Shown here one piece after another: positions 2,228 to 51,711 of a stretch of DNA of 64,000 bases. The stretch lies in the NCBI GenBank assembly GCA_963696385.1, contig CAVOKF010000003.1:576001-640000 (forward strand), given 5' to 3'. Source of the DNA: an uncultured delta proteobacterium (lineage in GTDB: Bacteria; Myxococcota_A; Polyangia; Polyangiales; Polyangiaceae). The position numbers and the translations under genes are program-made. The notes below the pieces were generated by a model. The model made no database searches, was not told the DNA's origin, and saw only the letters and a list, made by a program, of their open reading frames with translations. Within the stretch, counting starts at the first letter, position 1. Each line of letters starts with the position of its first letter.

Positions 2228-3334
2228 ATGTCCATTTTTGATGCAGGAAAGCCCCATCCCCGCCGACCGCGCCAAGGATCGGCTCTGCGAGTTCAATCGC
2301 CCGCCGTGTCGCAGGCGCTCGGGATGCGCTCCTTTGGCCTGGACTCCAGCGGACCCGAACGCCTCGCGAGCGGAGCCGCCCTGCTGGTGGGCAACTTCGC
2401 TTCCCAGGATTGGCTGATTCTCGGGTATTTGGTCGCGTTGCTCGTCGCTCTCGCCCTCGGCGCCGGGCACAACCGGGCGGCCTGCGCGGTGCGAGTGTGT
2501 GCCGATCTTACGGGGTACCTATTCGTGCTCACGATGGTACGGCTTCCGGTGCTTCGCTGGAGCGGCTCGCTGAGTTCGCTACTTTATCGGCTCGCGGTCG
2601 TCGCGACAGTGGTTGGATCGTTCTTCCAACTGCGCGAGATTCTTCCCGCCGTGAGTCCCTGGGCGGATGACTCGCGCATCTACGCTTTCGACTTGCATGT
2701 GTTCGGGTTCGAGCCGAGCGTGTGGCTCGATCGGTTCGTATCGCGACCGTCGACGGAGTGGTTCGCCTTCTTCTATTTTCTGTATTTCTTGATCCTGACC
2801 ATTCACGTGCTGCCCATGCTTTTGTTCGAGCGCAACGTTCAAGTGCTGGGTCGTTTCGCGGTGGGGCTGTTGCTGGTGTTCTTGACGGCTCACCTGCTTT
2901 ATATGGTCGTGCCCGGTTGGGGGCCGTACTGGTACCTGCATGGATCGTTTCGCCGTCCGCTCGTCGGTGGACCCTTCTGGAAGCTCGTCGGTGCCACGGT
3001 CGATGCCGGGGGAGCGCAGAAGGACATTTTCCCCTCCCTTCATACGGCCGTGCCTACGTTCTTTGCGATCTTCAGCTGCCGTCACCGAAAATTGGCGCCT
3101 TTCAAGTATACCTGGGTCGTCATGTCGTTTTTTGCGACGCAGATGATCCTCGCAACCATGTTCTTGCGTTGGCATTACCTCGTGGACGTCGTCGCCGGCG
3201 TCACGTTGGCCGTCGCCGGCGCCTACGCCGGGGCTCGGATCGCCGATTGGGAGCACGCGAAGCGCGAACGACTCGGGCTTCAGGCCGCGTGGATGCCGCT
3301 CGTATACCCTTGGGAGCGCACGGGCGGCGGCTGA
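2228..3334 (+). CDS. PAP2-superfamily membrane phosphoesterase/phosphotransferase (AUR1/IPC-synthase-like, PAP2_3)
   Basis: Multiple TM segments; motifs VVPGWGP, FPSLHTA and RWHYLVDVVAG. Start uncertain. Confidence 0.8.
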   Translation: MSIFDAGKPHPRRPRQGSALRVQSPAVSQALGMRSFGLDSSGPERLASGAALLVGNFASQDWLILGYLVALLVALALGAGHNRAACAVRVCADLTGYLFVLTMVRLPVLRWSGSLSSLLYRLAVVATVVGSFFQLREILPAVSPWADDSRIYAFDLHVFGFEPSVWLDRFVSRPSTEWFAFFYFLYFLILTIHVLPMLLFERNVQVLGRFAVGLLLVFLTAHLLYMVVPGWGPYWYLHGSFRRPLVGGPFWKLVGATVDAGGAQKDIFPSLHTAVPTFFAIFSCRHRKLAPFKYTWVVMSFFATQMILATMFLRWHYLVDVVAGVTLAVAGAYAGARIADWEHAKRERLGLQAAWMPLVYPWERTGGG

Positions 3335-3346
3335 GCGGACGACCCC

Positions 3347-4399
3347 ATGCTCGGATTCGAGATTATCGGCACGGGCCACTATGTGCCGGGGCGCCCCGTG
3401 TCGAACGACGACTTGTCGCGGGTCATGGACACGAGCGACGAATGGATCTTCAAGCGGTCGGGGATCCGGCAACGGCACTATGCCCCTGAAGGCGTAGGCG
3501 CAAGCGACCTCGCCGTGGAGGCGAGCAAGCGGGCGCTCGAGGCCGCCTGCGTTCGGCCGGACGAGATCGATTACGTCATTTTTTCTACGATGACGCCGGA
3601 CTACATTTTTCCGGGACCGGGAGCGCTGCTCGCGCACAAGCTCGGGCTAAGCGGCACGCCGGCCCTCGACATCCGGCAGCAATGCGCGGCGATGCTCTTC
3701 GGGTTGCAGATCGTCGACGGGCTCGTGCAAAGTCGAGCGGCCCGCACGATTCTGTTCGTCGGCGCCGAAGCGCACGCTGGGTTCATGCCTTGGGAGGACT
3801 GGGATGCGCTCGAACCCGGCGGCCGCAGCGCCAGCCCCGAAGCCAAAGCCCGCGCCAACAAGCATCGGGCTCTCGCCGTGCTCTTCGGCGATGGTGCAGG
3901 GGCATTGGTGTTTCGAGCGACCGAACGCGACGCGGGGCTGCGCGGAATCAAACTTCACACGGACGGGGCCGCGGCGAAACTTTTGTACGTGGAAGGGGGC
4001 GGCTTTCGGTCACGCCCTTACTGGAAGCACTCGGACTACGACGAGCAACGGTACATCCCGACGATGGACGGGCGCGAGCTTTTCAAGTTCGCAGTCACAC
4101 GTCTTCCGGAATGCGCCCGCGCGCTGTGCACCGAGACCGATACGCCCATGGACACCATTGACCTGTTCTTGGCACACCAGGCCAATTCAAGAATCAACGA
4201 CTATGTCCGCGATCAGCTGGGTGTTCCACCCCACAAGCTGCCTTCGAACATCGACCGCTTCGGCAACACCAGCGCGGCCACGCTTCCCATTTTGATCGAC
4301 GAACAAACGCGCGCGGGCCATCTGAAGGCGGGTGATTTGTGCATGCTTTTGGCGCTGGGCGCAGGCGTGCATTGGGGATGTGCGCTCGTGCGCTGGTAG
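3347..4399 (+). CDS. fabH: 3-oxoacyl-ACP synthase III (FabH family)
   Basis: GTGHYVP, DTSDEWI..RSGI, catalytic Cys (QQCAA), LFGDGAGA, His (AHQAN), Asn (GNTSAA). Confidence 0.9.
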   Translation: MLGFEIIGTGHYVPGRPVSNDDLSRVMDTSDEWIFKRSGIRQRHYAPEGVGASDLAVEASKRALEAACVRPDEIDYVIFSTMTPDYIFPGPGALLAHKLGLSGTPALDIRQQCAAMLFGLQIVDGLVQSRAARTILFVGAEAHAGFMPWEDWDALEPGGRSASPEAKARANKHRALAVLFGDGAGALVFRATERDAGLRGIKLHTDGAAAKLLYVEGGGFRSRPYWKHSDYDEQRYIPTMDGRELFKFAVTRLPECARALCTETDTPMDTIDLFLAHQANSRINDYVRDQLGVPPHKLPSNIDRFGNTSAATLPILIDEQTRAGHLKAGDLCMLLALGAGVHWGCALVRW

Positions 4400-28550: not shown

Positions 28551-31280
28551 TCACCGCTTGCGGGCGTTGTGCCCCTCGATGCGGTCGGGACCGGCGCCCT
28601 CTTCGTGTCCGTCGCTCGCATCGTGCGAAATGTGCCCTTCGGCCTCCCGAAGTTTTTCCGCGATTTCGATGATTCGCCGTTCGACCCGGCCGAACACGCT
28701 CGATGCAGGAAAGCGCCCGCTCGCGTCGCGCTCGCCAGCGGGAAGCCCGGTCAAAACCTCGATTCCCTGCGCAGCGCGGTCGACGGCGTAGAGCTGAAAG
28801 TGTCCGGCCGCGACGGCCGCGGCGACATCGTCACGAAGCACAAGGTGCGGGCGATTCGCGCTCGGGATCAGGACACCCTGAACACCGTTCAGGCCCCGCG
28901 CCTTGCAGAGATCGAAGAACCCTTCGATCTTTGCGCATACCCCGCCGATCGCCTGCATTTCGCCGAGCTGATTCACGCTCCCGGTCACGGCGATCCCCTG
29001 ATCGATTCCAACGTCGGCCAACGCGCTCAACACGGCGAACAATTCGCTCGAACTTGCGCTGTCTCCATCGATCTCGCCGTAGCTCTGCTCGAAGGCGAGC
29101 TGGGCGCGCAGGCTGAGCGGCCGCTCCTGACCGAACATGCGCGCGAGATAACCGCGCAGAATGGCCACTCCCTTCGTATGAATACTCCCTCCGAGTTGCG
29201 CCTCGCGTTCGACGTCGATGATCCCCTCTCGCCCGATGCCGACCACCGCGGTGATCCGCATCGGCTGGCCGAACTCGACATCGCCGGCGCTGAACACGCT
29301 CAGGCCGTTCACGACGCCGACCCGCCATCCGGCGGTATCGAGGGCGACTTCTCCGCGCAGCGTGATCTCGCGAATGTGCCGTTCCGCACTCCCGGCACGC
29401 TCGCGGCGTTCCAGCCACGCCGCCTGGATGTCTTCTGCAGAGACCACGGACACGGGAGGCGGAGCGATGGATGCTCGAAACGGGCGCGCGGCCCCTTCGC
29501 TCGCGAGCCCATCGGCCTCCCCTTCCGCACCGGTCGCCCTAGCGACCGCAAGCGCGCTGGCAAACGCCATCGTTTCCTCGAGCGGTGACAGTGTCAGCGC
29601 AAGTTTTTCGCGATCCGCGGCCAAACGGGTGGCTAGATCGAGCAACTGCGCGCGTGCGGACTGATCGAACCGCCCCCACGCGCGCTCCTTGGCCATGGCC
29701 ATGAGGTACGCGTCGAGCGCGGCCAGACTCTTGGGTGACCGTGGAATGACCGGGTCGACTTCGACCTTCACGCGAAAGAGCGAAGCGAAATCCGGGTCCG
29801 CTTCGAGGAGCGTGGCGTAGAGCTCGGGCGGGCCGACGAGCACGACGCGGACGTGGATCGGGACCGGCACCGGCCGCAACGACGTGGCGTACAGGCCGAG
29901 CGGTCCGAGCGGATCTTCCGCACCGATTCGCTGCTCGCGCATGACACGCTTCATTCGCTCCCAGATGATCGGATCGGTGAGCAAATCACCGGCGCGCACA
30001 ACGAGCACGCCACCGCTCGCCTTGTGCAGGGATCCCGCCCGAATGCGCGTGAAGTCCGTCAAGAGCGCGCCGTAGCGCGCACGGCGTTCCAGGTAACCGA
30101 AGAGGCTGGGATAGGTGGGGTTGGTGTCGTAGACGACGGGCGCAGGCACCCCTGGCTCGTGGGACACGAGAAGATTGACCTTGAATCGATTCAGGCGCGT
30201 CGCGAGCTCCGGATCGTCCTTTTCCTCTCGCGAGCGCTTCTCTTGCTCGTCTTCGTCGTCGACTTCGACGAGATCTTCCCAGTCTTCAACGAGGGCTTCG
30301 TGGACTCGATCCACCCACTCACGCACGGGATCGCCGAGAGCCGCTACCGATCGGCTGACCTCCTTCATCGCGGACTCGATGACACCTGCAGCCGCCTTGG
30401 AAAACGCCGCCTCACGCGCGGCGTCGAACCGCGCGCTCTGCGCCCGCACGTTATGGGCGGCTTTCTCCACCTCTCGGGTCAGCTTGTGCTCCGATTCGGC
30501 GAGCGCGCGCTTGGTCGAATCGTCGAGCACGTCGAACTGCTCGGCGCTCACGGGCTTGCCGTGGAGAATGGGGAACGTCTGCACGCCCCCGTGCACCGGA
30601 CGAACGCCGAATCCGAAGGTCTTCGCGAGCGACTCGAGTTCATGGATGACTGCGCGGTTCTTCGCTTCAAGCTCGGAGGCGAGCTGCGTCTGCGCGTGCT
30701 TGAACTCTTCGCCCTCGACCACGGTAGGGATGCGTTCCTTGAGGCGATCGATGAGCGCGTCCATCGTTCGAACGAGCGTCGGCCCCTGCCCCGCAGGAAG
30801 CACGAGCGGGCGGGGCGCCTCGGGGTGATCGAAGTCGTGAACGTACGCAATGTCGTTCGGGGTCGGACGCGTGCTTGCGAATCGGGAGGCATAGCGAACG
30901 ATGTCGTCCTCGATCATCACCTCCGGCGCGGCCGCCACGAAAACGTGAAAACTCGGCTCTCGCGCGCTCAAACCGAGCTCGAGTGCCCTCCGGGCCACGC
31001 TAGGTACCAGTTCCAACATGCCATGGGTTTCGAGCGGATCGGCCGGCAGGAGCGCAGGGTCGGTCCTCATCACGGCATCCTCGCTTCCGACCCGGAATGC
31101 GGCCCGCGCACGCGACAGCGCGCTGTCGCCATTTTCCGCTGCGGGGCTGCTCGCCGCACGGCCGTTCGCGGACCGACTTCGGGCGGCTGAAGGATTCGGC
31201 GAAGTCGCTGAGGCCGGTTTCGAGTGACGCGCCGCAGCCGGCTCGGACTTCGTGCGCGCTCTCGGTCGGCGAGTCGGCAT
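28551..31280 (-). CDS. LonC-like S16 protease (AAA_32-type module + Lon_C)
   Basis: Ser-Lys dyad DGDSASS / GGVCAKIEGF, VNGLSV, DVERE...G.IH.KG, AVTGSVNQ. ATG 31280 chosen because the longer ORF overlaps the divergent cyclase gene. Confidence 0.88.
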   Translation of the reverse strand: MPTRRPRARTKSEPAAARHSKPASATSPNPSAARSRSANGRAASSPAAENGDSALSRARAAFRVGSEDAVMRTDPALLPADPLETHGMLELVPSVARRALELGLSAREPSFHVFVAAAPEVMIEDDIVRYASRFASTRPTPNDIAYVHDFDHPEAPRPLVLPAGQGPTLVRTMDALIDRLKERIPTVVEGEEFKHAQTQLASELEAKNRAVIHELESLAKTFGFGVRPVHGGVQTFPILHGKPVSAEQFDVLDDSTKRALAESEHKLTREVEKAAHNVRAQSARFDAAREAAFSKAAAGVIESAMKEVSRSVAALGDPVREWVDRVHEALVEDWEDLVEVDDEDEQEKRSREEKDDPELATRLNRFKVNLLVSHEPGVPAPVVYDTNPTYPSLFGYLERRARYGALLTDFTRIRAGSLHKASGGVLVVRAGDLLTDPIIWERMKRVMREQRIGAEDPLGPLGLYATSLRPVPVPIHVRVVLVGPPELYATLLEADPDFASLFRVKVEVDPVIPRSPKSLAALDAYLMAMAKERAWGRFDQSARAQLLDLATRLAADREKLALTLSPLEETMAFASALAVARATGAEGEADGLASEGAARPFRASIAPPPVSVVSAEDIQAAWLERRERAGSAERHIREITLRGEVALDTAGWRVGVVNGLSVFSAGDVEFGQPMRITAVVGIGREGIIDVEREAQLGGSIHTKGVAILRGYLARMFGQERPLSLRAQLAFEQSYGEIDGDSASSSELFAVLSALADVGIDQGIAVTGSVNQLGEMQAIGGVCAKIEGFFDLCKARGLNGVQGVLIPSANRPHLVLRDDVAAAVAAGHFQLYAVDRAAQGIEVLTGLPAGERDASGRFPASSVFGRVERRIIEIAEKLREAEGHISHDASDGHEEGAGPDRIEGHNARKR

Positions 31281-31385
31281 AGGGGCGGTATCGACCTCGA
31301 CGACACTAGCATTTTCCGCTCCCCCATGCGGCTCTCGCGTGGGCGCTGTTCGCCCCCCTCGAAACCGCGCTACCATAGAGGTCTC

Positions 31386-33203
31386 ATGGCGAAGCTGATC
31401 CTTGCGACTGCCGAAGGACAGCAGTTCATCGACCTTCGGCCCGCGAACAGCCTCGGCCGTCACCCGAACAACACGATTCAGCTCCTCGACAAGATCGTCT
31501 CGAAAGAGCACTGCATCCTCGAGCAACGCGACGGTCAGTTCGTTCTGCGGGATCTCGGCAGCTTGAATGGGACGTACGTCAACAGTGAGCGCGTTCGGGG
31601 CGAGATCTACCTCAAGCACGGCGACGAAATCGCCCTCGGCTCCACGCGCGCACGATTCGACGATGAGTCGGGCACGGCGTTTCCTCCACCGCCCATCGGC
31701 CCCGGCGCCGTCCAGCACGCAGCGACCGGCGGCTCGTCATGGCCCGCGGTATCGACGGCGCCACGAGCACAGCCCGCACCCGCGCAGGCGGTTTCACCTT
31801 CTGCCGGTCACGTTCCTATCGTCGGCTCCCATGACCCGAGTTCGCGATCACCCCACCCGCACGGTAACCCGGCCGCGCAGCCTACGCCTATTCACCGGCC
31901 CGCGGGCGCGACGCGGGTCGACGTCCTCGACGCGGCGCGGGCCATCGGCACGCAGATCGCCGCACAAACGAAGGGGTTCGTGCCGTTCGAAGCCATGGGC
32001 CACGATCCCCAACAGCTCCGGCTCGATTACGAGCGACTGCGCATCAGCTGGGAGCTTACGCGAGACATCGGTCTCGAACGCGACCTTGATCAGCTTCTCG
32101 ACAAGATTTTGCTCGCTATCTTCAAGTTCACGAAGGCGGACCGTGGCGTCATTTTGCTTCGCGAGACCGACGGAAACCTGCAACCGAGGGCGGCGCGACG
32201 GCGCGACGGCAGCGACTCGCCCATCCAGGTGAGCTCGACCATCCTGAACCACGTGATCCAGGAGCGAGCAGGCGTGCTGACCCATGACGCCTCCTTGGAC
32301 TTCGCCGCTTCGAAGGGCAAGTCGATGATCCTCAATCGGATCTCGAGCGCCATGGTCGTGCCTTTCTTGCACGACAATGAAAAAGAAGTCCTCGGGGTGT
32401 TGTGGCTCGACTCCGAAGCGCTTGCGCAATTTCAACCCAAGGACCTCGAAGTCATCACTTCGGTCGCAGGCCAGGCATCGATGTTCATCGAGAACACCAT
32501 CCTCGCGAAGAAAGTCGAACAGGAGATCGTTCTGCGGGAGCGGTTCATGCGCTTGGTCGCGCCGAACGTCGCCGAGCAAATGGTCAGCGGGAAGCTCGAA
32601 GTGAAAAAAGGCGGTCAGCTGGTCTCTGAACTGAACGTCTTCAACAGCGACATCCGCGGCTTTACTGCCATGAGCGAGGGCACATCCGCCGAGACTCTCG
32701 TCGAAATGCTCAACGAGTACTTCGAGCTCATGGTCGAGACCGTATTCAAATACGAGGGGACGCTCGACAAGTTCATGGGCGACGGGATCATGGCCTTTTG
32801 GGGGGCCCCTCTTGCGCACCGCGACGACACGATTCGGTGCGTGCACTGCGCCCTCGATCAAATGCACGTGCTCGGCCGCTTCAATCGGCAACGAGTCGGC
32901 GAGGGCAAGCCCCCGATCGCGGTCGGCTTCGGTATCCACACGGGGCCGGGCGTGGTCGGCTATGTCGGTAGCTCCAAAGCGCTCTCGTATACCGTCATCG
33001 GCGATACCGCAAACACCAGCGCAAGGCTCTGCGCGAGCGCCGCGGCCGGGCAAATCGTCGTCAGCGAGTCGACGCTCGCCCGCCTTGGCGGCCGCTTCGA
33101 GATCGAAGAGATCGAACCCCGGTCGCTCAAAGGCAAAGAGAAACCGATGCGGCGGTTCAACGTCGTCCGGCAGAAAGCCAGCGCCGTGGCCATGGTTGGA
33201 TGA
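31386..33203 (+). CDS. FHA-GAF-class III adenylate/guanylate cyclase
   Basis: FHA (LGRH, VSKEH, DLGSLNGT), GAF (SAMVVP, GVLWLD, F...DL), cyclase (SDIRGFT, DKFMGDG, YTVIGDTANTSARL, LKGK). Confidence 0.93.
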   Translation: MAKLILATAEGQQFIDLRPANSLGRHPNNTIQLLDKIVSKEHCILEQRDGQFVLRDLGSLNGTYVNSERVRGEIYLKHGDEIALGSTRARFDDESGTAFPPPPIGPGAVQHAATGGSSWPAVSTAPRAQPAPAQAVSPSAGHVPIVGSHDPSSRSPHPHGNPAAQPTPIHRPAGATRVDVLDAARAIGTQIAAQTKGFVPFEAMGHDPQQLRLDYERLRISWELTRDIGLERDLDQLLDKILLAIFKFTKADRGVILLRETDGNLQPRAARRRDGSDSPIQVSSTILNHVIQERAGVLTHDASLDFAASKGKSMILNRISSAMVVPFLHDNEKEVLGVLWLDSEALAQFQPKDLEVITSVAGQASMFIENTILAKKVEQEIVLRERFMRLVAPNVAEQMVSGKLEVKKGGQLVSELNVFNSDIRGFTAMSEGTSAETLVEMLNEYFELMVETVFKYEGTLDKFMGDGIMAFWGAPLAHRDDTIRCVHCALDQMHVLGRFNRQRVGEGKPPIAVGFGIHTGPGVVGYVGSSKALSYTVIGDTANTSARLCASAAAGQIVVSESTLARLGGRFEIEEIEPRSLKGKEKPMRRFNVVRQKASAVAMVG

Positions 33204-38507: not shown

Positions 38508-38794
38508 CGCGGCCCTCGCCGGGGAACTGAGACGTCGGCCCCGCCATCCCGCAAAGTCCGGGGAAGTGACCGCAACCTAAAAAAATCAACCGATGGAATG
38601 ACGCATCGAGTCGCGCGCGGCCTCTCGGTTGGCTACACTGCCTCAGCCACAGCTGAATCCCGGTGCAATCGTCATCATTTTCTTGACGCGAGACGTCTTC
38701 CTGATCGACGGCTAATGCGATCATCGGAAAAATTCTACCTCAGTCCGGCGGCCCCTTTGCCGCGGTGGTAGCCATCGGAGAGCGGGGAGCACAC

Positions 38795-40354
38795 ATGGAG
38801 GCAGGTCAAACGATCGCAGGCAAGTATCGCCTGAACCGACCGCTGGGCGCGGGTGGAATGGCGTCGGTCTGGTCGGCCACAAACGTCTACACGGACCGAC
38901 AATTCGCCATCAAGTTCATGCTCCCGCAAGTCGCGGGCACGCCGGAAGCGGCACGCCGGTTCCTGCGCGAGGCGAAGGTCAGCGGGCGCATCAACCATCC
39001 CAATATCATCGAGGTGATCGACGTCGGACAAGCGCAGGACGGTGCGCTGTTCCTGGTGATGGAGCTTCTCAGCGGTCTATCGCTCGACGCCGCCGTGCGA
39101 CGGCGGAATCCTCCGATGACCGTACGCGACTTTTTGGCCATCATGCGCGACGTCGCGAGTGCGCTCGGAGCGGCCCACGCCGCTGGCGTCATCCACCGCG
39201 ATCTGAAGCCTACCAACATTTTTCTGCACACGGACCGCAACGGGAAGGTCGTACCTAAGCTGCTCGACTTTGGCGTCAGCAAGGTTCTCGAGGAGGGACG
39301 CGAGGGCCTCACGGCGGTCGGAACCGTGCTCGGTTCTCCCCTGTACATGAGCCCGGAACAGGCCATGGGGGCCGACGGAATCGACGGACGAACCGACGTG
39401 TTCGCGTTCGGTGCGATCCTCTTCGAGGCACTGTGCGGACGTCGCGCGTATTCGGGCGCCAATCTGCATGCACTCATCGTCGCCATCGCGACCACGGCGC
39501 CAAGAAATATCGACGACCTGGCACCCGAACTGCCGCCGACACTTCGGGCCCTCATTCGCGAATGCATGGCGAGAGACAAGGCGCAGCGACTGGCGTCGTT
39601 CCAAGTGGTCGCCGAGCGGCTTACCGCGGTGATCGATCACCTCGAGGCACCCGACCGCCGGCTTCCGGACGCATCTCAAGGAAGCCTCCCGGAGGAGGGC
39701 AAGACGCCGCGTCCGAACGAACCGAACCACAACCGCACCGGCGAGCGCGCCGCCCCGCCTGCGGCCGGAGACTCCGGAGGCACGTCGCCCCCCATCTCCA
39801 TCCCCATGTCTGCCCCCGTGTTGGCGCCGCCCGGCTTGGCTCGACCTCGTGGTCGTTTCGTATCCCGCGCTCTAGGGTATGCCCGAGTGGGGCTCCCTTC
39901 GGCGACGGGGGTGCTTGCGTTCTTGGCCCTCGTCGTTGCGGTCGCCGGACTGGTGCGTCGCGGTGGGTCCCCGCATGCCGAGACGGCGGGGCTCAGGCCT
40001 GCGACCGCCGCTCCGACGGTTCCGCTCGCCGAGGGGCTGAGCCCGTTGGCCGGATCGGAGCCATCGCGAAACGTCCCGACGGTCTCCGTCGACGCATTGC
40101 CCGTGGCCGCTCATGCGATTGCCTCGCGTGCGAGAAACGGCGGGCGACTCAGTATCGCCGCCACCCCTGGGTCTTGTTCGGTCTCGATCGACGGCATCCC
40201 ACACGGCGTCACTCCCACGCGCGGTCTCGAGGTGAGCGCCGGTACGCATCACGTCGAATGCGTGACGCCGAGCGGGCAGCCAAAGACCGCCACGGTCACG
40301 GTGAGCGAAGGAAGCGAGTCGCGCTACCGATTCACGCTCCCCGATGAGCCGTGA
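38795..40354 (+). CDS. Hanks-type Ser/Thr protein kinase with TM helix and C-terminal PEGA-like domain
   Basis: LGAGGMASV, AIK, HRDLKPTN, DFGVSK, YMSPEQ; TM VLAFLALVVAVAGLV; LSI.A.P...V.IDG...G.TP...V.AG.H; SD GGGGAG. Confidence 0.93.
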   Translation: MEAGQTIAGKYRLNRPLGAGGMASVWSATNVYTDRQFAIKFMLPQVAGTPEAARRFLREAKVSGRINHPNIIEVIDVGQAQDGALFLVMELLSGLSLDAAVRRRNPPMTVRDFLAIMRDVASALGAAHAAGVIHRDLKPTNIFLHTDRNGKVVPKLLDFGVSKVLEEGREGLTAVGTVLGSPLYMSPEQAMGADGIDGRTDVFAFGAILFEALCGRRAYSGANLHALIVAIATTAPRNIDDLAPELPPTLRALIRECMARDKAQRLASFQVVAERLTAVIDHLEAPDRRLPDASQGSLPEEGKTPRPNEPNHNRTGERAAPPAAGDSGGTSPPISIPMSAPVLAPPGLARPRGRFVSRALGYARVGLPSATGVLAFLALVVAVAGLVRRGGSPHAETAGLRPATAAPTVPLAEGLSPLAGSEPSRNVPTVSVDALPVAAHAIASRARNGGRLSIAATPGSCSVSIDGIPHGVTPTRGLEVSAGTHHVECVTPSGQPKTATVTVSEGSESRYRFTLPDEP

Positions 40355-41174
40355 CGAAGCGCTGCACCGCGCCATCGGCGACGCCTGCCTAGGCGTGGAT
40401 GCGGGCGAAGAGATCGCACGCGACTTGCCAGGCTTTCTCATCGCGCGCGGCGTCAAAGGCCATGACGTGGCTTCCTCTCTCAGCCATCGACGAGGGCTCG
40501 CCGTGTATCGGAGCTTGGTTCGAAACGGACTCTCGAGCGTCGCTTTGGGCCGACTGTCACGCACGCGCGCCCGTCTGAACGGCGCTTGCGAGGGACGCTT
40601 CGATGAGGATCTCGCCCAGTTTCTCGCCGAACGCGGACCCCGGACGCGCTACCTTCGAGACGTTCCCGCCGAGTTCTTCGCGTGGGCGGTGGCGGGATGG
40701 ATTGCAGACCCTCGAGTGCCCCGATATTTGCCCGATCTGGCTCGGTATGAGCTCGCCTGCTTCGACCTGGCAACCTTCGAACATGCGCGGCCACCGGAGC
40801 CGCTCGCGGCCGTGGCGCTCGACCGAGCCCTCGTGTTTGCGCCATCGACGCGGATCCGACGCTACGCCTGGGCCATTCACGAGTTGCACGATGCCGGCGA
40901 CTCGACCGAGACGCCGGCTTGCCTCGATGTCAGCCTGCTCGGGTACCGGGACAGCGAACACGTCGTCCGCTGGCTCGCCCTCACTCCACTGGCGGCAGAC
41001 ATCGTCGACCGACTCCTTGGGGGGGAGCCCGTGGGACAAGCGATCGAACGAGCCTGTGAAGCATCGCACGCCTCGGCGGATCGGGACGAGATGGCACGGT
41101 TGTTCGCCGATCTGGCCAACCGGGGCGTCCTCCTCGGCGCAAAAGAGCATGGACCCAAGTCGAACGACGTCTAG
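40344..41174 (+). CDS. DUF2063/HvfC-like MNIO partner protein (RiPP chaperone, C-terminal RRE/wHTH-like)
   Basis: GLAVYRSLVRN, F...LAQFL...GP...Y..DVP.EF, YLPDLARYELA, C-terminal LLGYRD...LTPLAA...LADLANRGVLLG; adjacent to the DUF692 gene. Confidence 0.82.
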   Translation: MSRDEALHRAIGDACLGVDAGEEIARDLPGFLIARGVKGHDVASSLSHRRGLAVYRSLVRNGLSSVALGRLSRTRARLNGACEGRFDEDLAQFLAERGPRTRYLRDVPAEFFAWAVAGWIADPRVPRYLPDLARYELACFDLATFEHARPPEPLAAVALDRALVFAPSTRIRRYAWAIHELHDAGDSTETPACLDVSLLGYRDSEHVVRWLALTPLAADIVDRLLGGEPVGQAIERACEASHASADRDEMARLFADLANRGVLLGAKEHGPKSNDV

Positions 41175-42136
41175 ATTTGTGCGCGCCCATGTTCTGCGCG
41201 CGCCCCGTCCGTCGTTGCATCGGTCGCGTCGAAGGATCTCCAGATGGCGCGAATGCGCATCAGCTCGTCGATTAGCTCAGCCAAAGGCGGGACATTCCGA
41301 TCACGCTCCAGAACGATCGGCACGGGCCCGGTTCGCGCGAGGACGCGTCGAAGAAGGCCAAGCACCGGCGGGGGTGCGGTGGCCCCGTGGGTATCGACGA
41401 TCATCGCGCCGGGAGAGCCCGCGGACTGCCGGTCGCCCAGGCCCCGATCGTCGACTGCGAACCATTCGTGACCCGCTACATGGATCTCCACGACGCGTTC
41501 GAGCGGTGCAGCGCGCATCCAGGCGTCCACATCGAAACCGAAGTTCGATGCGTTGACGTACGCGTTGTTGACGTCCAAGAGGAGACTGCAATCGGCCTCG
41601 TGGCATACGCTGGAAAGGAATTCCGGCTCACTCAGATCGGCGCGACCGGGATGCCAGTAGTAGCTCACGTTCTCGACCGCGAGCGGGCGGCGGATTGCGT
41701 CGCGCGCCCTTCGAATGCGGTCGGCGATCCGCGTGACGTTGCTGCGCGTGAAGGCCACAGGCAAAAGCTCGTGCAGAACGCGACCCCCGGCTTCACAAAA
41801 GCACAGGTGATCCGAATGCCAGGGCGCGCCCACGCGATCGAGCACAACGGCCAGCTCGCCAAGATGGCGTTGGTCGAGGGGCTCCAGTCCCCCCAGCGAG
41901 AGGGTCAGGCCGTGCGTCACGATCGGAAACCGATCCGCGACCCATTCGAGAGCGGCCGCAACCGACCCACCGCGTCGCACGTAGTTTTCCGGCGTTATTT
42001 CGAAAAAATCGATCGGGACCGCGGACGATGGCAAAGCGCAAGATCGCTCACCACCCGACGCGCTGCCCTTCTGAATCAACTCGTCGACGAAGTCCCAGCG
42101 AAGGCCGAGCCCCACGCCCCGGACAGGACTCGTCAC
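41171..42136 (-). CDS. DUF692 multinuclear non-heme iron oxidative enzyme (MNIO)
   Basis: GVGLGLR, EITPENY, HGLTLSLGG, SDHLC, HELLP, ENVSYY, LLLDVNNAYVN, EIHVAGH, DTHG, LERD; GTG overlaps the precursor stop. Confidence 0.96.
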   Translation of the reverse strand: MTSPVRGVGLGLRWDFVDELIQKGSASGGERSCALPSSAVPIDFFEITPENYVRRGGSVAAALEWVADRFPIVTHGLTLSLGGLEPLDQRHLGELAVVLDRVGAPWHSDHLCFCEAGGRVLHELLPVAFTRSNVTRIADRIRRARDAIRRPLAVENVSYYWHPGRADLSEPEFLSSVCHEADCSLLLDVNNAYVNASNFGFDVDAWMRAAPLERVVEIHVAGHEWFAVDDRGLGDRQSAGSPGAMIVDTHGATAPPPVLGLLRRVLARTGPVPIVLERDRNVPPLAELIDELMRIRAIWRSFDATDATTDGARAEHGRAQI

Positions 42137-42597
42137 AAGACTTTCTTCTTCGTATCGCTACCGCACGTGCCCGCGCCGCAGCTGGCCTCCGCATCCGAGG
42201 CCTTCGGCGCAGCGGTCTTCTTGACGGCCACCTTGGGCGCGATCGGCCTCGCCGGGGCCATGCTCGCCGCCGACGAGGATGTCGTCGAAGGCGCCGGAAT
42301 CGGTGAGGGTGGCGTCGGGGCGCTCGTTGGCGCGGTCACCGCGACCGCCGCCACCGTCCGTTGAGCACTGGCCGAGGCCGCGGGTGAGGTGGCATTCGAA
42401 TCCGCGGAAGCCTTGGCGTCGCCTCCGCAACCTCCGGCCGAGCACGACGCCTGCGCGTTGCCGCTCGACGGCGCCGGCTTCGTGGGCGCCACGACCTGCA
42501 CCGGTTGCGGCGCCGCACCCGCACACCCCACGACGGCCGTGGTTCCCAATGCGGTCAGGATCGCAGCAAAGCTTTCGAACGACAAATCGTGGCGCAT
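42133..42597 (-). CDS. Putative MNIO RiPP precursor lipoprotein with two CxAGxCG cores
   Basis: SD AAGAGGAG; signal peptide and lipobox AVVG-C25; NAQASCSAGGCGGDAK (C52, C57) and DAEASCGAGTCGSDTK (C140, C145) separated by an A/S/P/T-rich linker; translationally coupled to DUF692. Confidence 0.8.
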   Translation of the reverse strand: MRHDLSFESFAAILTALGTTAVVGCAGAAPQPVQVVAPTKPAPSSGNAQASCSAGGCGGDAKASADSNATSPAASASAQRTVAAVAVTAPTSAPTPPSPIPAPSTTSSSAASMAPARPIAPKVAVKKTAAPKASDAEASCGAGTCGSDTKKKVL

Positions 42598-42695
42598 GTC
42601 TCGCGGGCTCCTCTTTAGGCTGGGCTTCTTCGCTCGTCATGTGGGTGAGATCATGGCTCTCGCAGTACTCGACCGCCCAACATGCAGCTGCAGAA

Positions 42696-42721
42696 TACGG
42701 CACGGAGCACGGATGGTTTCA
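42696..42721 (-). promoter_or_regulatory. ECF-sigma-type promoter upstream of the RiPP precursor
   Basis: The minus strand reads TGAAAC-catccgtgctccgtgc(16)-CGTA, about 100 nt upstream of ATG 42597. Confidence 0.55.
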
Positions 42722-49548: not shown

Positions 49549-51711
49549 TCACGCGCGCTCGACGGCGACCACCCCCTTGACTTTCTGCAGCGATCGCATC
49601 ACCGCCTTCAACTGCTGCAGATCCTCGCACACGAACGAAAACAGGTTGACGGCTCGGCCGTCGTCACTCGCCCGGCAGTTTGCCTCGCTGATGTTGATAC
49701 CTTGCGCCATGAACGTCTGGCCGACGTTCGCGAGAATGCCGGGGAGATTTGCCGTGACCACGCGAACCTGCACGCTGCGATTAATGCGCGCCTTGCTGTC
49801 CCACGTGATTTCGACACGCCGTTCCGGATCCGTGTCGAACGCCTTGGGACAGCCTCGTCGGTGGATCGTGACGCCGCGCCCGCGCGTGATGAATCCGAGG
49901 ATGTCGTCGCCGGGCAGCGGATTGCAGCACTTTGCGTACCGCACCAATACGTCGTCGATGCCGTTGATCCGAATCGCTCCTTCGTCACGCTTGATGACTT
50001 TGCGAACCAGACCCGCCAGTCTGCCCTCGCGGAGCGACGCCGGTGGCTTGCTCTCGCGCCCGCTTTCGTCCGGTGGCGCGACGAACTTGATGATCTCGTC
50101 CGGATCGATCTTTCCGTAACCGATTCCGATGAAAAGCTCTTCGAGATTCGAGACCTTCAGGTGCTCGAAGAGCCGGCGTAACTCCGACTCGTTCTTAAGG
50201 AGCTTGCTCGCGCTGATCCCTGCGTCGTGAAGTCCGCGCTCGAGAAGCTCTTCGCCGAGCCGACGGCTCTTGTCGCGCTGGTCCTGCCGGAAGTAGTTGC
50301 GGATCTTGGCGCGGGCCCGCGTCGTTCCGATGAAGTCGAGCCAGTCCTTGCTCGGACTCTGATGCGTACTCGTCAGGACCTCGACGACGTCGCCGTTGCG
50401 CAGTTTGTAGCGCAATGACTCCATCTTTCCGTTGATGCGTGCCCCAGTGACGTGATCGCCGAGTTGAGTGTGAATCTGATACGCGAAATCGATGGGGGTC
50501 GCTCCCCGCGGAAACACCCGCACGTCCCCTTTCGGAGTGAAGACATAGACCTCGTCCTGAAACAGGTCGACCTTGACGCCTTCGAGGAATTCGGCCGGAT
50601 CCTTGAGTTCCTTTTGCCACTCGAGAAGCTGCCGCAGCCACGAGAAGCGCTGCGCATCTTGCTCAGCGATGCCACCGCCGCGTTCCTTGTACTTCCAGTG
50701 CGCCGCTATTCCGCGCTCGGCCACCCGGTGCATCTCTTGCGTTCGAATCTGAATCTCGATCCGCTCGCGCCCCGGGCCGATGACCGTCGTATGCAACGAC
50801 TGATACATGTTCGGCTTGGGCAGCGCGACGTAATCCTTGAATCGGCCCGGGACGGGCGTCCACTGCGAATGGATGACCCCCAGCGCGGCATAGCAATCGC
50901 TCACGCTCTCCACGAGGACGCGAAACGCAATGAGATCCTGCACGCCTTCGAGGCCGGACTCCTGCGCCTTCATCTTGCGGTAAACGCTATAGAGGTGCTT
51001 CGCCCTGCCCGTGACCTCGGCTGCGAAGCCCTGCTCGGCCAGACGGCTCGACAGCGTCTTGCAGACCTCCGCGATATACTTATCGCGCTCGCGCTTCGTC
51101 TTCGTCATTTGCGCGACGAGCTCGGCGCAAGCCTCGGGCTCGAGATATCGGAAACTCAGGTCCTCGAGTTCACTCTTGAACGCCTGGATGCCGAGCCGGT
51201 TCGCGAGCGGCGCATAGATCTCCAGCGTTTCCTGCGCGATTCGCTGCTGGGAGTCGTGCCCCATGTGCTCGAGCGTCCGCATGTTGTCGAGGCGATCGCA
51301 GAGTTTGATCAGCAAGACGCGGATGTCCCGCGCCATGGCAACGACCATCTTGCGGAAATTCTCGGCCTGGCGATCCTCCTTGGAGGTGAAGTTGATCTTG
51401 GAGAGCTTCGTGACGCCGTCGACCAATTCGGCGACTTCCACGCCAAATTCCTTCGTCAGCTCATCGCTGGTCGCGAGCGTATCCTCGACGACGTCGTGCA
51501 AGAGGCCCGCACAGACGCTTGCCGCATCGAGACGCAGATCCGCCAAAATACCCGCGACACTCACCGGGTGCACGATGTAAGGCTGACCCGATTTGCGCGT
51601 TTGCCCCGCGTGCATGCGGTAGCTGTAGTCGTATGCTCGCTGAATCAGGTCGGGGTCGACCGTGGGCTGGTAGGCCTTGACCCGTTTGATAAGTTGTTCG
51701 GCCTGGAGCAT
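49549..51711 (-). CDS. relA: Bifunctional (p)ppGpp synthetase/hydrolase Rel
   Basis: H.GQ.RKSG.PY..HP, HDVVEDT, DRLDNMRTL, GRAKH, RFKDY, YQSLHT, EIQIRT, TGS (VFTPKG), CCNPLPGD, ACT. Confidence 0.96.
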   Translation of the reverse strand: MLQAEQLIKRVKAYQPTVDPDLIQRAYDYSYRMHAGQTRKSGQPYIVHPVSVAGILADLRLDAASVCAGLLHDVVEDTLATSDELTKEFGVEVAELVDGVTKLSKINFTSKEDRQAENFRKMVVAMARDIRVLLIKLCDRLDNMRTLEHMGHDSQQRIAQETLEIYAPLANRLGIQAFKSELEDLSFRYLEPEACAELVAQMTKTKRERDKYIAEVCKTLSSRLAEQGFAAEVTGRAKHLYSVYRKMKAQESGLEGVQDLIAFRVLVESVSDCYAALGVIHSQWTPVPGRFKDYVALPKPNMYQSLHTTVIGPGRERIEIQIRTQEMHRVAERGIAAHWKYKERGGGIAEQDAQRFSWLRQLLEWQKELKDPAEFLEGVKVDLFQDEVYVFTPKGDVRVFPRGATPIDFAYQIHTQLGDHVTGARINGKMESLRYKLRNGDVVEVLTSTHQSPSKDWLDFIGTTRARAKIRNYFRQDQRDKSRRLGEELLERGLHDAGISASKLLKNESELRRLFEHLKVSNLEELFIGIGYGKIDPDEIIKFVAPPDESGRESKPPASLREGRLAGLVRKVIKRDEGAIRINGIDDVLVRYAKCCNPLPGDDILGFITRGRGVTIHRRGCPKAFDTDPERRVEITWDSKARINRSVQVRVVTANLPGILANVGQTFMAQGINISEANCRASDDGRAVNLFSFVCEDLQQLKAVMRSLQKVKGVVAVERA

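Follow-up and report, generated by a model that had tools for sequence, protein, structure and literature searches.

A lipobox-bearing CxxxxC precursor, an MNIO enzyme and a convergent PME1-type partner encoded together in Polyangiaceae

Described systems and the locus in the window

Systems that combine an MNIO (DUF692) enzyme with a PME1-type partner protein are among the most widespread pathways for peptides that are synthesised by ribosomes and modified after translation (RiPPs), and few of their precursor types have been tested. MNIO-PME1 pairs install 5-thiooxazoles from cysteines in fontiphorin, oxazolin, gonophorin and the bufferins (PMC13097082; PMC11626156; the papers cited here were available in part, and what is said of them refers to those parts), and papers from 2024 to 2026 have described such products. 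Here we describe such a locus in the genome of a soil myxobacterium, an uncultured delta proteobacterium of the Polyangiaceae (assembly GCA_963696385.1). It lies at positions 38765-42597 of a stretch of 64,000 nucleotides (nt) of contig CAVOKF010000003.1, which is called the window throughout. The genes for a precursor, an MNIO and a PME1/HvfC-like partner are a real, conserved set. They represent an untested family of the known MNIO-PME1 ('captophorin'/bufferin/oxazolin) kind. The principle is an ordinary one, and some features of the gene order are unexplained. We lean towards the view that in Polyangiaceae the lipobox precursor, the MNIO and the convergent partner together make a lipid-anchored peptide, the CxxxxC motif of which is converted to likely metal-binding 5-thiooxazoles.

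For HvfBC it has been reported that the Sec signal serves as the leader and that HvfC is needed for the active diiron state (bioRxiv 10.64898/2026.07.17.739211). RiPP-lipoprotein hybrids were introduced as 'DAG-RiPPs' in 2026, and lipidation was shown for the chryseobasin-like DybA and for the oxazolin NedA, which was isolated in triacylated form; the host pathway lipidates precursors with lipoprotein signals, and both bufferins and oxazolins include members with such signals (PMC13056109). In the same paper, a set of uncharacterised lipoprotein precursors that share a highly conserved CxxxxC motif appears as 'Cluster X'. Antoine et al. (2025) described a 'CxxxxC' family of precursors with signal peptides, which comprises 76 sequences beside MNIOs; its clusters include DoxX, and 54% of them also encode Lactamase_B_2 (PMC12452194). 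A preceding analysis of the window from its letters and open reading frames (ORFs), here called the sequence-only reading, had regarded the lipid anchor of the precursor as apparently new. This novelty has to be given up, because lipidated MNIO peptides and CxxxxC precursors were published in 2025-2026 (PMC13056109; PMC12452194). Therefore, the locus is not a new principle, and it leaves the current picture of such systems unchanged.

The features of the locus are the following:

42133..42597, minus strand: precursor gene, an ORF of 154 residues, at the coordinates that the sequence-only reading had given
41171..42136, minus strand: MNIO (DUF692) gene, 321 residues, matching PF05114
40344..41174, plus strand: PME1/HvfC-like partner gene, 276 residues, matching the NCBIfam HvfC model
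38765..40354, plus strand: Ser/Thr protein kinase gene, 529 residues, with Pkinase and C-terminal PEGA domains
42523..42597, minus strand: predicted signal peptide with lipobox, residues 1-25 (MRHDLSFESFAAILTALGTTAVVGC), from conservation and the lipobox pattern
42421..42450, minus strand: internal module QASCSAGGCG (C52, C57; residues 50-59), optional in the family
42160..42189, minus strand: C-terminal module EASCGAGTCG (C140, C145; residues 137-146), with an invariant core
42696..42721, minus strand: TGAAAC-N16-CGTA, taken for an ECF-type (extracytoplasmic function) promoter in the sequence-only reading, unsupported as a feature

The region is thus made up of four genes, kinase and partner on the plus strand, MNIO and precursor on the minus strand, which are packed tightly. 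A Shine-Dalgarno sequence, GAGGAG, is found 10 nt 5' of the precursor ATG. The GTG start codon of the MNIO gene shares 4 nt with the precursor stop (GTGA), as expected for the translational coupling that had been proposed. The MNIO and partner genes are convergent and their stops overlap on opposite strands by 4 nt (CTAG), and the start of the partner gene in turn overlaps the kinase stop (ATGAGCCGTGA). The three-part set of Cys-motif precursor, DUF692 enzyme and DUF2063/HvfC-type partner is therefore present where the sequence-only reading had placed it. However, its members are a unit in part only: all three are there and the MNIO overlaps the precursor, whereas the partner gene lies on the plus strand and is coupled to the kinase gene. 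Because of this inverted position the three genes are not one operon. Genes for DoxX, a sigma or anti-sigma factor, or a protease are absent within about 10 kb of the locus, in agreement with the former statement that no DoxX, anti-sigma or dedicated protease gene is adjacent.

The three proteins compared with described families

The precursor consists of a hydrophobic signal, the internal module QASCSAGGCG, a 75-residue stretch that is 75% Ala/Pro/Ser/Thr, the C-terminal module EASCGAGTCG and a basic tail, SDTKKKVL. Its cysteines are C25 in the lipobox AVVGC, C52 and C57 in the internal module, and C140 and C145 in the C-terminal module; the positions previously assigned to the four module cysteines were right, as was the observation that the core differs from EGKCG. 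An alignment of 20 precursors revealed that the two ends of the protein are conserved and that the middle drifts: mean column identity is 0.73 in the signal peptide, 0.44 in the linker and 0.89 in the C-terminal motif, and the invariant residues are M1, L5, S6, G18, C25, P32, C140, G141, G143, T144 and C145. The pattern [LVIA][VMI][AG]C with the invariant Cys25 matches all 20 sequences, in agreement with the proposed lipobox, and the lipobox cysteine is followed at +2 by Ala or Gly. Cys25 is the predicted site of lipidation, while the C-terminal module is the predicted site of Cys-to-5-thiooxazole conversion and the signal-peptide segment is predicted to serve also as leader for the partner protein. 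E137, three residues before the first cysteine of the C-terminal module, is invariant in the genus. The internal module is found in 12 of 15 genus precursors and is missing from three (L006, L011, L020); its variants among the cluster representatives include CSAAGC and CSAKGC.

The precursor has no Pfam or NCBIfam match at E<=0.01, including DUF2282 and BufA2, and neither of these two is among the families listed for 53 members of the precursor family. Residues 129-148 score 13.1 bits (E 0.057) against the HvfA domain model NF050137 (KCGExKCG_twice), the cut-off of which is 19.5, and this model is touched by 3 of the 53 members at E<=1. As side observations, the NCBIfam model for the gliding-motility protein GltJ is weakly touched by 22 of the 53 aligned precursors, probably via their low-complexity Ala/Pro stretches, and 'invert_tail', a lipo-invert putative C-terminal anchoring domain, is weakly touched by three (best E 0.01).

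The MNIO is a clear member of its Pfam family, with 288.1 bits against PF05114 (MbnB_TglH_ChrH; cut-off 25) over positions 2-261 of the 263 of the model. The closest solved structure by sequence is PDB entry 3BWW (E 1.5e-50). In the alignment with it the motifs HG, SDH, VEN, LDVNN, HVAGH, DTHG and LERD are all present, and in 28 aligned sequences the motif residues H75, D109, H110, E155, D188, N190, N191, H219, H223, D248, H250, E277 and D279 are invariant. The His/Glu/Asp motifs are thus intact, as had been noted from the single sequence. The iron ligands are presumably among the residues of these motifs. Placement with hidden Markov models, which had been suggested as a check, gave a divided result. 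The best score is that on the HvfB equivalog model (NCBIfam NF003818), with 258.5 bits at a cut-off of 360, followed by the BufB equivalog model (NF050167), with 247.1 bits at a cut-off of 310; the enzyme is therefore nearest to HvfB and BufB, and it reaches neither cut-off. The remaining models are far behind (ApyH 92.5 bits; ChrH 53.8 bits, cut-off 600; MbnB 45.6 bits, cut-off 325). As judged from its sequence, the enzyme falls in the HvfB/BufB (5-thiooxazole-forming) group.

The partner protein reaches 80.3 bits (E 1.8e-22) on the NCBIfam HvfC model (NF050145; cut-off 142), 25.2 bits on Pfam DUF2063 (cut-off 27.2) and 27.5 bits on Pfam NGO1945_C, which is above the cut-off of 27. It has no sequence match in the PDB. 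An AlphaFold2 model of the protein (pLDDT 86.5, pTM 0.80) was compared with solved structures using Foldseek, and the first rank was taken by 3DEE, the PME1 protein of Neisseria gonorrhoeae (E 6.1e-8, TM 0.75 by target), ahead of two entries of TglI (8HCI_A and 8HI7_A, ranks 2-3). The model therefore predicts a PME1 fold, with a helical N-domain and a winged C-domain that resembles a RiPP recognition element (RRE). Both the HvfC score and the nearest fold agree with the earlier assignment of the protein as DUF2063/HvfC-like. The genome of the window holds two further MNIOs, each with a co-directional neighbouring partner gene, and because these two have partners of their own, the convergent gene is the cognate candidate for the MNIO of the window.

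The oxazolin/captophorin systems HvfABC(X) of Haemophilus influenzae, FonABC of Fontimonas thermophila and NedABC of Neisseria dentiae share several features with the locus: an HvfB-like MNIO with a PME1/HvfC-like partner, and an exported precursor with cysteines in a five-residue periodicity, C-x4-C spacing, Gly after the first cysteine and Glu three residues before it (E137 in the window). NedA also has a lipoprotein signal, such as is predicted for the precursor described here. CGAGTC and the CGEGKC of the HvfA repeat have the same C-x4-C spacing, with Ser/Thr where HvfA has Lys. However, there are pronounced differences. The core is [AS]SCGAGTC, it occurs in one or two modules in contrast to the 6 or more repeats of oxazolins, and a long disordered tether precedes the module. 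A DoxX-like HvfX gene is lacking at the locus, the partner gene is inverted and lies behind a kinase gene, and precursor, MNIO and partner all score below the cut-offs of HvfA, HvfB and HvfC, respectively.

The bufferin systems (BufA1/BufA2-BufB-BufC, with or without DoxX) likewise consist of an MNIO with a DUF2063 partner and a Sec-exported, Cys-containing precursor, two cysteines of which become copper-binding thiooxazoles (PMC11626156; PMC12452194). In contrast, the precursor of the window lacks a DUF2282/BufA2 match and is predicted to be disordered, not a small folded protein, and neither DoxX nor sigma/anti-sigma genes accompany an MNIO that stays below the BufB cut-off. The 'CxxxxC' family and Cluster X are similar by description, and both have precursors with signals or lipoprotein signals and a CxxxxC motif beside an MNIO and a DUF2063 partner. 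Compared by description, the family of Antoine et al. differs in its DoxX and Lactamase_B_2 genes, which are absent from the 60 flanking ORFs of 21 relatives' loci and from the window. Cluster X, also compared by its description, may well be this very precursor family. The chryseobasin/DybA systems of the ChrH subfamily resemble the locus in that an MNIO acts on a precursor with a lipoprotein signal and two cysteines in a C-terminal motif; their product is lipidated, as is predicted for that of the locus (PMC13056109). They differ by a CPxCGxG motif, an extra C-terminal domain of the enzyme and the lack of a partner, whereas the motif here has no Pro, a PME1 partner is encoded and the ChrH score is far below the cut-off.

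Distribution and the proposed product

Among 24 genomes of the same genus, about 20 encode an ortholog of the MNIO (59-90% identity), and a precursor-type ORF precedes it in every genus locus whose contig reaches upstream, with a gap of -6 to +36 nt in 15 orthologous loci. A DNA search of 41 genomes for S-C-G-x-G-T-C yielded 26 matches that code for S-C-G-[AQ]-G-T-C when translated by hand; by manual count, 20 of them lie within about 60 nt upstream of an MNIO ortholog, all in the same genus, and the other six are found elsewhere (G040:C9, two in G038:C4, G036:C637, G023:C214 and G001:C16). Scanning metagenome contigs for SCGAGTC[SAG][AGS] gave at least 592 stretches, and 46 relatives were confirmed among the matches listed, to which all metagenome counts in this text refer. 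An MNIO follows directly downstream in 42 of the 46 loci; the remaining four lie on contigs that stop within about 130 nt of the motif, so that an MNIO is present in 42 of 42 loci with room for it. The motif thus co-occurs with DUF692 genes, on which the sequence-only reading had made its proposal depend.

A protein search with the single precursor sequence found only two proteins, and a profile of the 20 precursors was used instead. At E<=0.001 it matched the representatives of 188 clusters (50% identity), and 68 of these matches reached E<=1e-10; the precursor family is thus a common one among Polyangia of peat and soil. Among the best 150 of the 188 representatives, 128 have a lipobox-like pattern (regular expression), 102 the motif C[GS]xGxC, 84 both, and 77 CGAGTC; many of those failing one pattern are short fragments. 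Ten representatives that were looked up are metagenome entries named 'hypothetical protein' or without protein name. The relatives belong to metagenome-assembled genomes labelled Polyangiaceae, Labilithrix, Myxococcales or 'uncultured delta proteobacterium', and because of these labels the host is a myxobacterium, as had been supposed.

Two metatranscriptome runs, both from the study that also supplied the best DNA holder, contain RNA-library contigs that match window positions 42300-42619 and 42459-42649 at 100%, which covers the 5' half of the precursor gene and 22 and 52 nt upstream of it, respectively. Others match the kinase region 38727-40354 exactly. The MNIO and partner genes are without such a contig, and run X20 gave none, which is not evidence of absence. 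As RNA libraries can hold DNA and the contigs give neither levels nor strands, the matches hint only weakly at transcription of the precursor.

If the three proteins act like their described relatives, the following sequence of events can be proposed. A heterodimer of MNIO and PME1-type partner would bind the full-length precursor in the cytoplasm, and the unusually conserved signal peptide would probably be the leader for the RRE-like C-terminal domain of the partner. The MNIO would oxidise C140 and C145, and probably also C52 and C57, to 5-thiooxazoles, as HvfBC, FonBC and BufBC do. The modified precursor would be exported by the Sec pathway, and Lgt, LspA and Lnt would lipidate Cys25 and remove residues 1-24. 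The product would be a heterocycle pair at a membrane, on a disordered Ala/Pro/Ser/Thr tether of about 110 residues, and in the envelope it might bind a soft metal such as copper. Local hints at a metal role are weak; they consist of genes for P-type ATPases at two of 21 relatives' loci and of the family relationship. Gene content, overlaps, conservation, family placement, the modelled fold of the partner and the presence in RNA libraries are observations, and binding, chemistry, lipidation, metal binding and localisation are inferred from them and from the described systems. Such a peptide, in which one CxxxxC unit without Lys is carried on a lipid anchor, would be a natural minimal substrate that could be used to probe the reach of 5-thiooxazole chemistry and the rule that the signal peptide is the leader.

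Several points weigh against this proposal. FonB contacts a Lys before the Cys, and FonBC processed 5-mers without Lys only partly (PMC13097082); no Lys precedes the cysteines in the core of the precursor. The HvfBC heterodimer formed only on co-expression (bioRxiv 10.64898/2026.07.17.739211), whereas MNIO and partner are encoded here on opposite strands. In one genome of the genus (G006) the partner gene, still convergent, is 4.8 kb away, and in another (G016, 81% complete) this query found no partner gene. The MNIO is below both curated equivalog cut-offs, the partner below those of HvfC and DUF2063, and the precursor misses the HvfA model. The n-region of the signal peptide contains one basic and two acidic residues. 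Neither a DoxX nor a copper-resistance gene is near the locus in the window, and DoxX is found in 0 of 60 flanking ORFs at the 21 relatives' loci. The ambiguity of the RNA libraries counts here as well.

Some of these points could also mean that the same three proteins perform another chemistry, with the CxxxxC motif being cross-linked or rearranged to a macrocycle and heterocycle as by ChrH/DybH, or turned into oxazolone-thioamides as in methanobactin. MNIOs are chemically diverse, and ChrH-type enzymes act on two-Cys CPxCGxG motifs in substrates of which some are lipoproteins (PMC13056109); the Lys found in characterised substrates of 5-thiooxazole formation is missing from the motif here, and the enzyme stays under both equivalog cut-offs. 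However, its scores on the ChrH and MbnB models are a small fraction of the respective cut-offs, ChrH-type enzymes work without a partner and possess an additional helical bundle at the C-terminus (PMC13056109), in contrast to the HvfB/BufB-like enzyme with a PME1 partner found here, and the assignment of oxazolone-thioamides to HvfBC products has been revised to 5-thiooxazole (PMC13097082; bioRxiv 10.64898/2026.07.17.739211). We therefore regard another chemistry as unlikely, yet as the foremost of the alternatives.

Gene order, the kinase gene and further loci

The convergent order of MNIO and partner is found across the genus, with 3' ends that range from an overlap of 84 nt to a distance of 49 nt, and in 19 of 20 metagenome loci with a partner match. 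The partner gene is co-directional and just behind the MNIO gene, without an adjacent kinase gene, at five loci, namely L032, L034, L035 and L038, which are genome loci labelled Labilithrix or Polyangiaceae, and L089. In a tree of the MNIOs, rooted on the long branch of the paralogs, the co-directional loci form one clade (support 100/99) nested among convergent ones. The kinase has a Pkinase domain (153.7 bits), a C-terminal PEGA domain (26.1 bits) and, as judged by eye, one hydrophobic segment at about residues 380-400. The order kinase-then-partner, with overlapping or nearly abutting genes, is kept across the genus, and 12 of the 19 metagenome loci with convergent order also have a kinase gene ahead of the partner gene. 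The remaining seven comprise four with contigs that end close by, two (L050 and L062) that have room and show no kinase match, and L076, in which an ORF with an FGE-sulfatase domain is located upstream of the partner, after which the contig ends. Similar ORFs on the strand of the partner and upstream of it occur in more distant lineages (L036:6730-7824, L037:6154-7278, L076:5070-6182). That of L036 follows the kinase-domain ORF directly and thus lies between kinase and partner, and that of L037 lies between the partner and a kinase match further upstream.

Two side observations concern the kinase: L050:144-2228 encodes a kinase-FGE-sulfatase fusion upstream of the YceI-like gene (see below), on the precursor side of the locus, and the kinase of the window carries PEGA where distant relatives have an FGE-sulfatase-like domain. 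A class I S-adenosylmethionine (SAM) methyltransferase is encoded shortly downstream of the partner, on the opposite strand, at three of the five co-directional loci, with a TerC gene between the two in L034. Heavy-metal P-type ATPases (E1-E2_ATPase and HMA domains) are encoded divergently beside the locus in two different lineages, and they are the only metal-related neighbours seen at the 21 relatives' loci. The coordinates are:

L034:6472-7233, minus strand: SAM methyltransferase
L038:5798-6574, minus strand: SAM methyltransferase
L089:5361-6092, minus strand: SAM methyltransferase
L028:427-2793, minus strand: P-type ATPase
L034:299-2581, minus strand: P-type ATPase

A description of the kinase-linked inverted partner, of the absence of DoxX or of a YceI-like neighbour was not found in the available parts of the published work, and the words 'kinase' and 'Myxococc' do not occur in the available main text of PMC12452194. 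A functional link of the kinase to the system is unproven. If it existed, the modified lipopeptide could be a signalling or sensing element instead of a metal buffer, with the membrane Ser/Thr kinase reading its state or controlling its maturation. This fits the kept order of kinase and partner in the genus and in the metagenome loci, the FGE-sulfatase-like ORFs upstream of the partner in L036, L037 and L076 (in the first two with a kinase upstream), the RNA-library contigs over both kinase and precursor, the single site per molecule and the lack of DoxX. However, a kinase beside the partner is lacking in the co-directional clade L032, L034, L035 and L038, and also in L089; at L050 and L062 the contig would accommodate a kinase gene and none was matched; synteny among kin is not independent evidence, and a kinase interaction or a phospho-acceptor is a conjecture from gene order. 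We consider a signalling role improbable, slightly more so than another chemistry. Less probable still is a more specific version, in which the lipopeptide would not buffer copper in bulk but would be a thiooxazole probe with a single site, tethered to the membrane, that works with a YceI-like lipid-binding lipoprotein and with the membrane kinase, the outer domain of which is PEGA or FGE-sulfatase-like, and in which kinase signalling would set the activation of the MNIO by its partner. If this were true, a RiPP metallophore would be under the control of a circuit linked to phosphorylation.

The small protein could also be a lipoprotein or membrane-anchored protein of the ordinary sort, with an unmodified CxxxxC that binds metal or forms a disulfide and with an MNIO that acts on an unseen substrate. 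This would agree with its lack of a curated family and with its length and low complexity for a RiPP, but is very improbable in view of the strict adjacency to the MNIO in all genus loci and all metagenome loci with room, the overlap of the two coding regions, a core that is invariant while the linker drifts, and the absence of another small Cys-rich ORF beside the MNIO in the window.

Upstream of the precursor, 13 of 15 genus loci have a co-directional gene, the end of which is about 25-100 nt from the precursor ATG. This gene is YceI-like, with Pfam scores of 21.6-26.9 bits around the cut-off of 23.7, which is passed in L048 and L078, and its product bears a lipobox of its own. The gene is also upstream of the precursor in 41 of the 46 metagenome loci (L045-L089). 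An example from a relative is:

L027:2669-3508: YceI-like gene, directly upstream of the precursor gene

The gene is missing at the locus in the genome of the window and in its closest relatives, L005 and L044. The ortholog in the genome of the window is located on another contig (G000:C1:128206-128967), beside an alpha-amylase-like gene, and is therefore not part of the locus. One might speculate that the YceI-like gene belongs to the ancestral operon, e.g. as a carrier for the lipidated peptide. The inverted partner behind a kinase and the YceI-like lipoprotein gene upstream offer handles on the regulation and trafficking of lipidated RiPPs.

The same upstream region bears on the ECF-type promoter that had been proposed at 42721-42696 on the minus strand. 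The motif TGAAAC-N16-CGTA is located in a rearranged intergenic region and is kept in 2 of 15 genus loci, the window and a relative that is 90% identical, whereas the other 13 have a coding gene where it would lie. The looser form GAAAC-N16/17-CGT has 4 matches in the window, in comparison to 5.7 expected by chance, and a sigma-70 scan returned 0 sites. With a frequency at chance level, conservation restricted to the 90%-identical relative and no sigma or anti-sigma gene near, the promoter was rejected.

Elsewhere in the window there are genes for a LonB/LonC-like AAA protease (28551-31718, minus strand), an FHA-GAF-adenylate/guanylate cyclase (31224-33203, plus strand) and a RelA/SpoT homologue (49549-51711, minus strand), for which no link to the locus is apparent.

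The two further MNIO loci of the genome show other arrangements. The second locus (L001; G000:C5:986377-990159, with the genes at about 545-2660 of this segment, minus strand) has the canonical co-directional order. Its MNIO is a true BufB, with 344.9 bits at the cut-off of 310, and is followed by a DUF2063/HvfC-like gene; the precursor has a lipobox (…FGAAGCAGE…) and two CKGQNDCKGQGGC units, and reaches 42.8 bits on the BufA2 model (cut-off 60). The MNIO of the third locus (L002; G000:C7:289025-292807) is a borderline BufB with 308.7 bits at the same cut-off, and the co-directional, partner-like gene beside it matches no NCBIfam model. As read from the sequence, an FGE-sulfatase-like ORF is located upstream (173-1333), and a small Cys-rich ORF lies downstream on the opposite strand (3155-3565).

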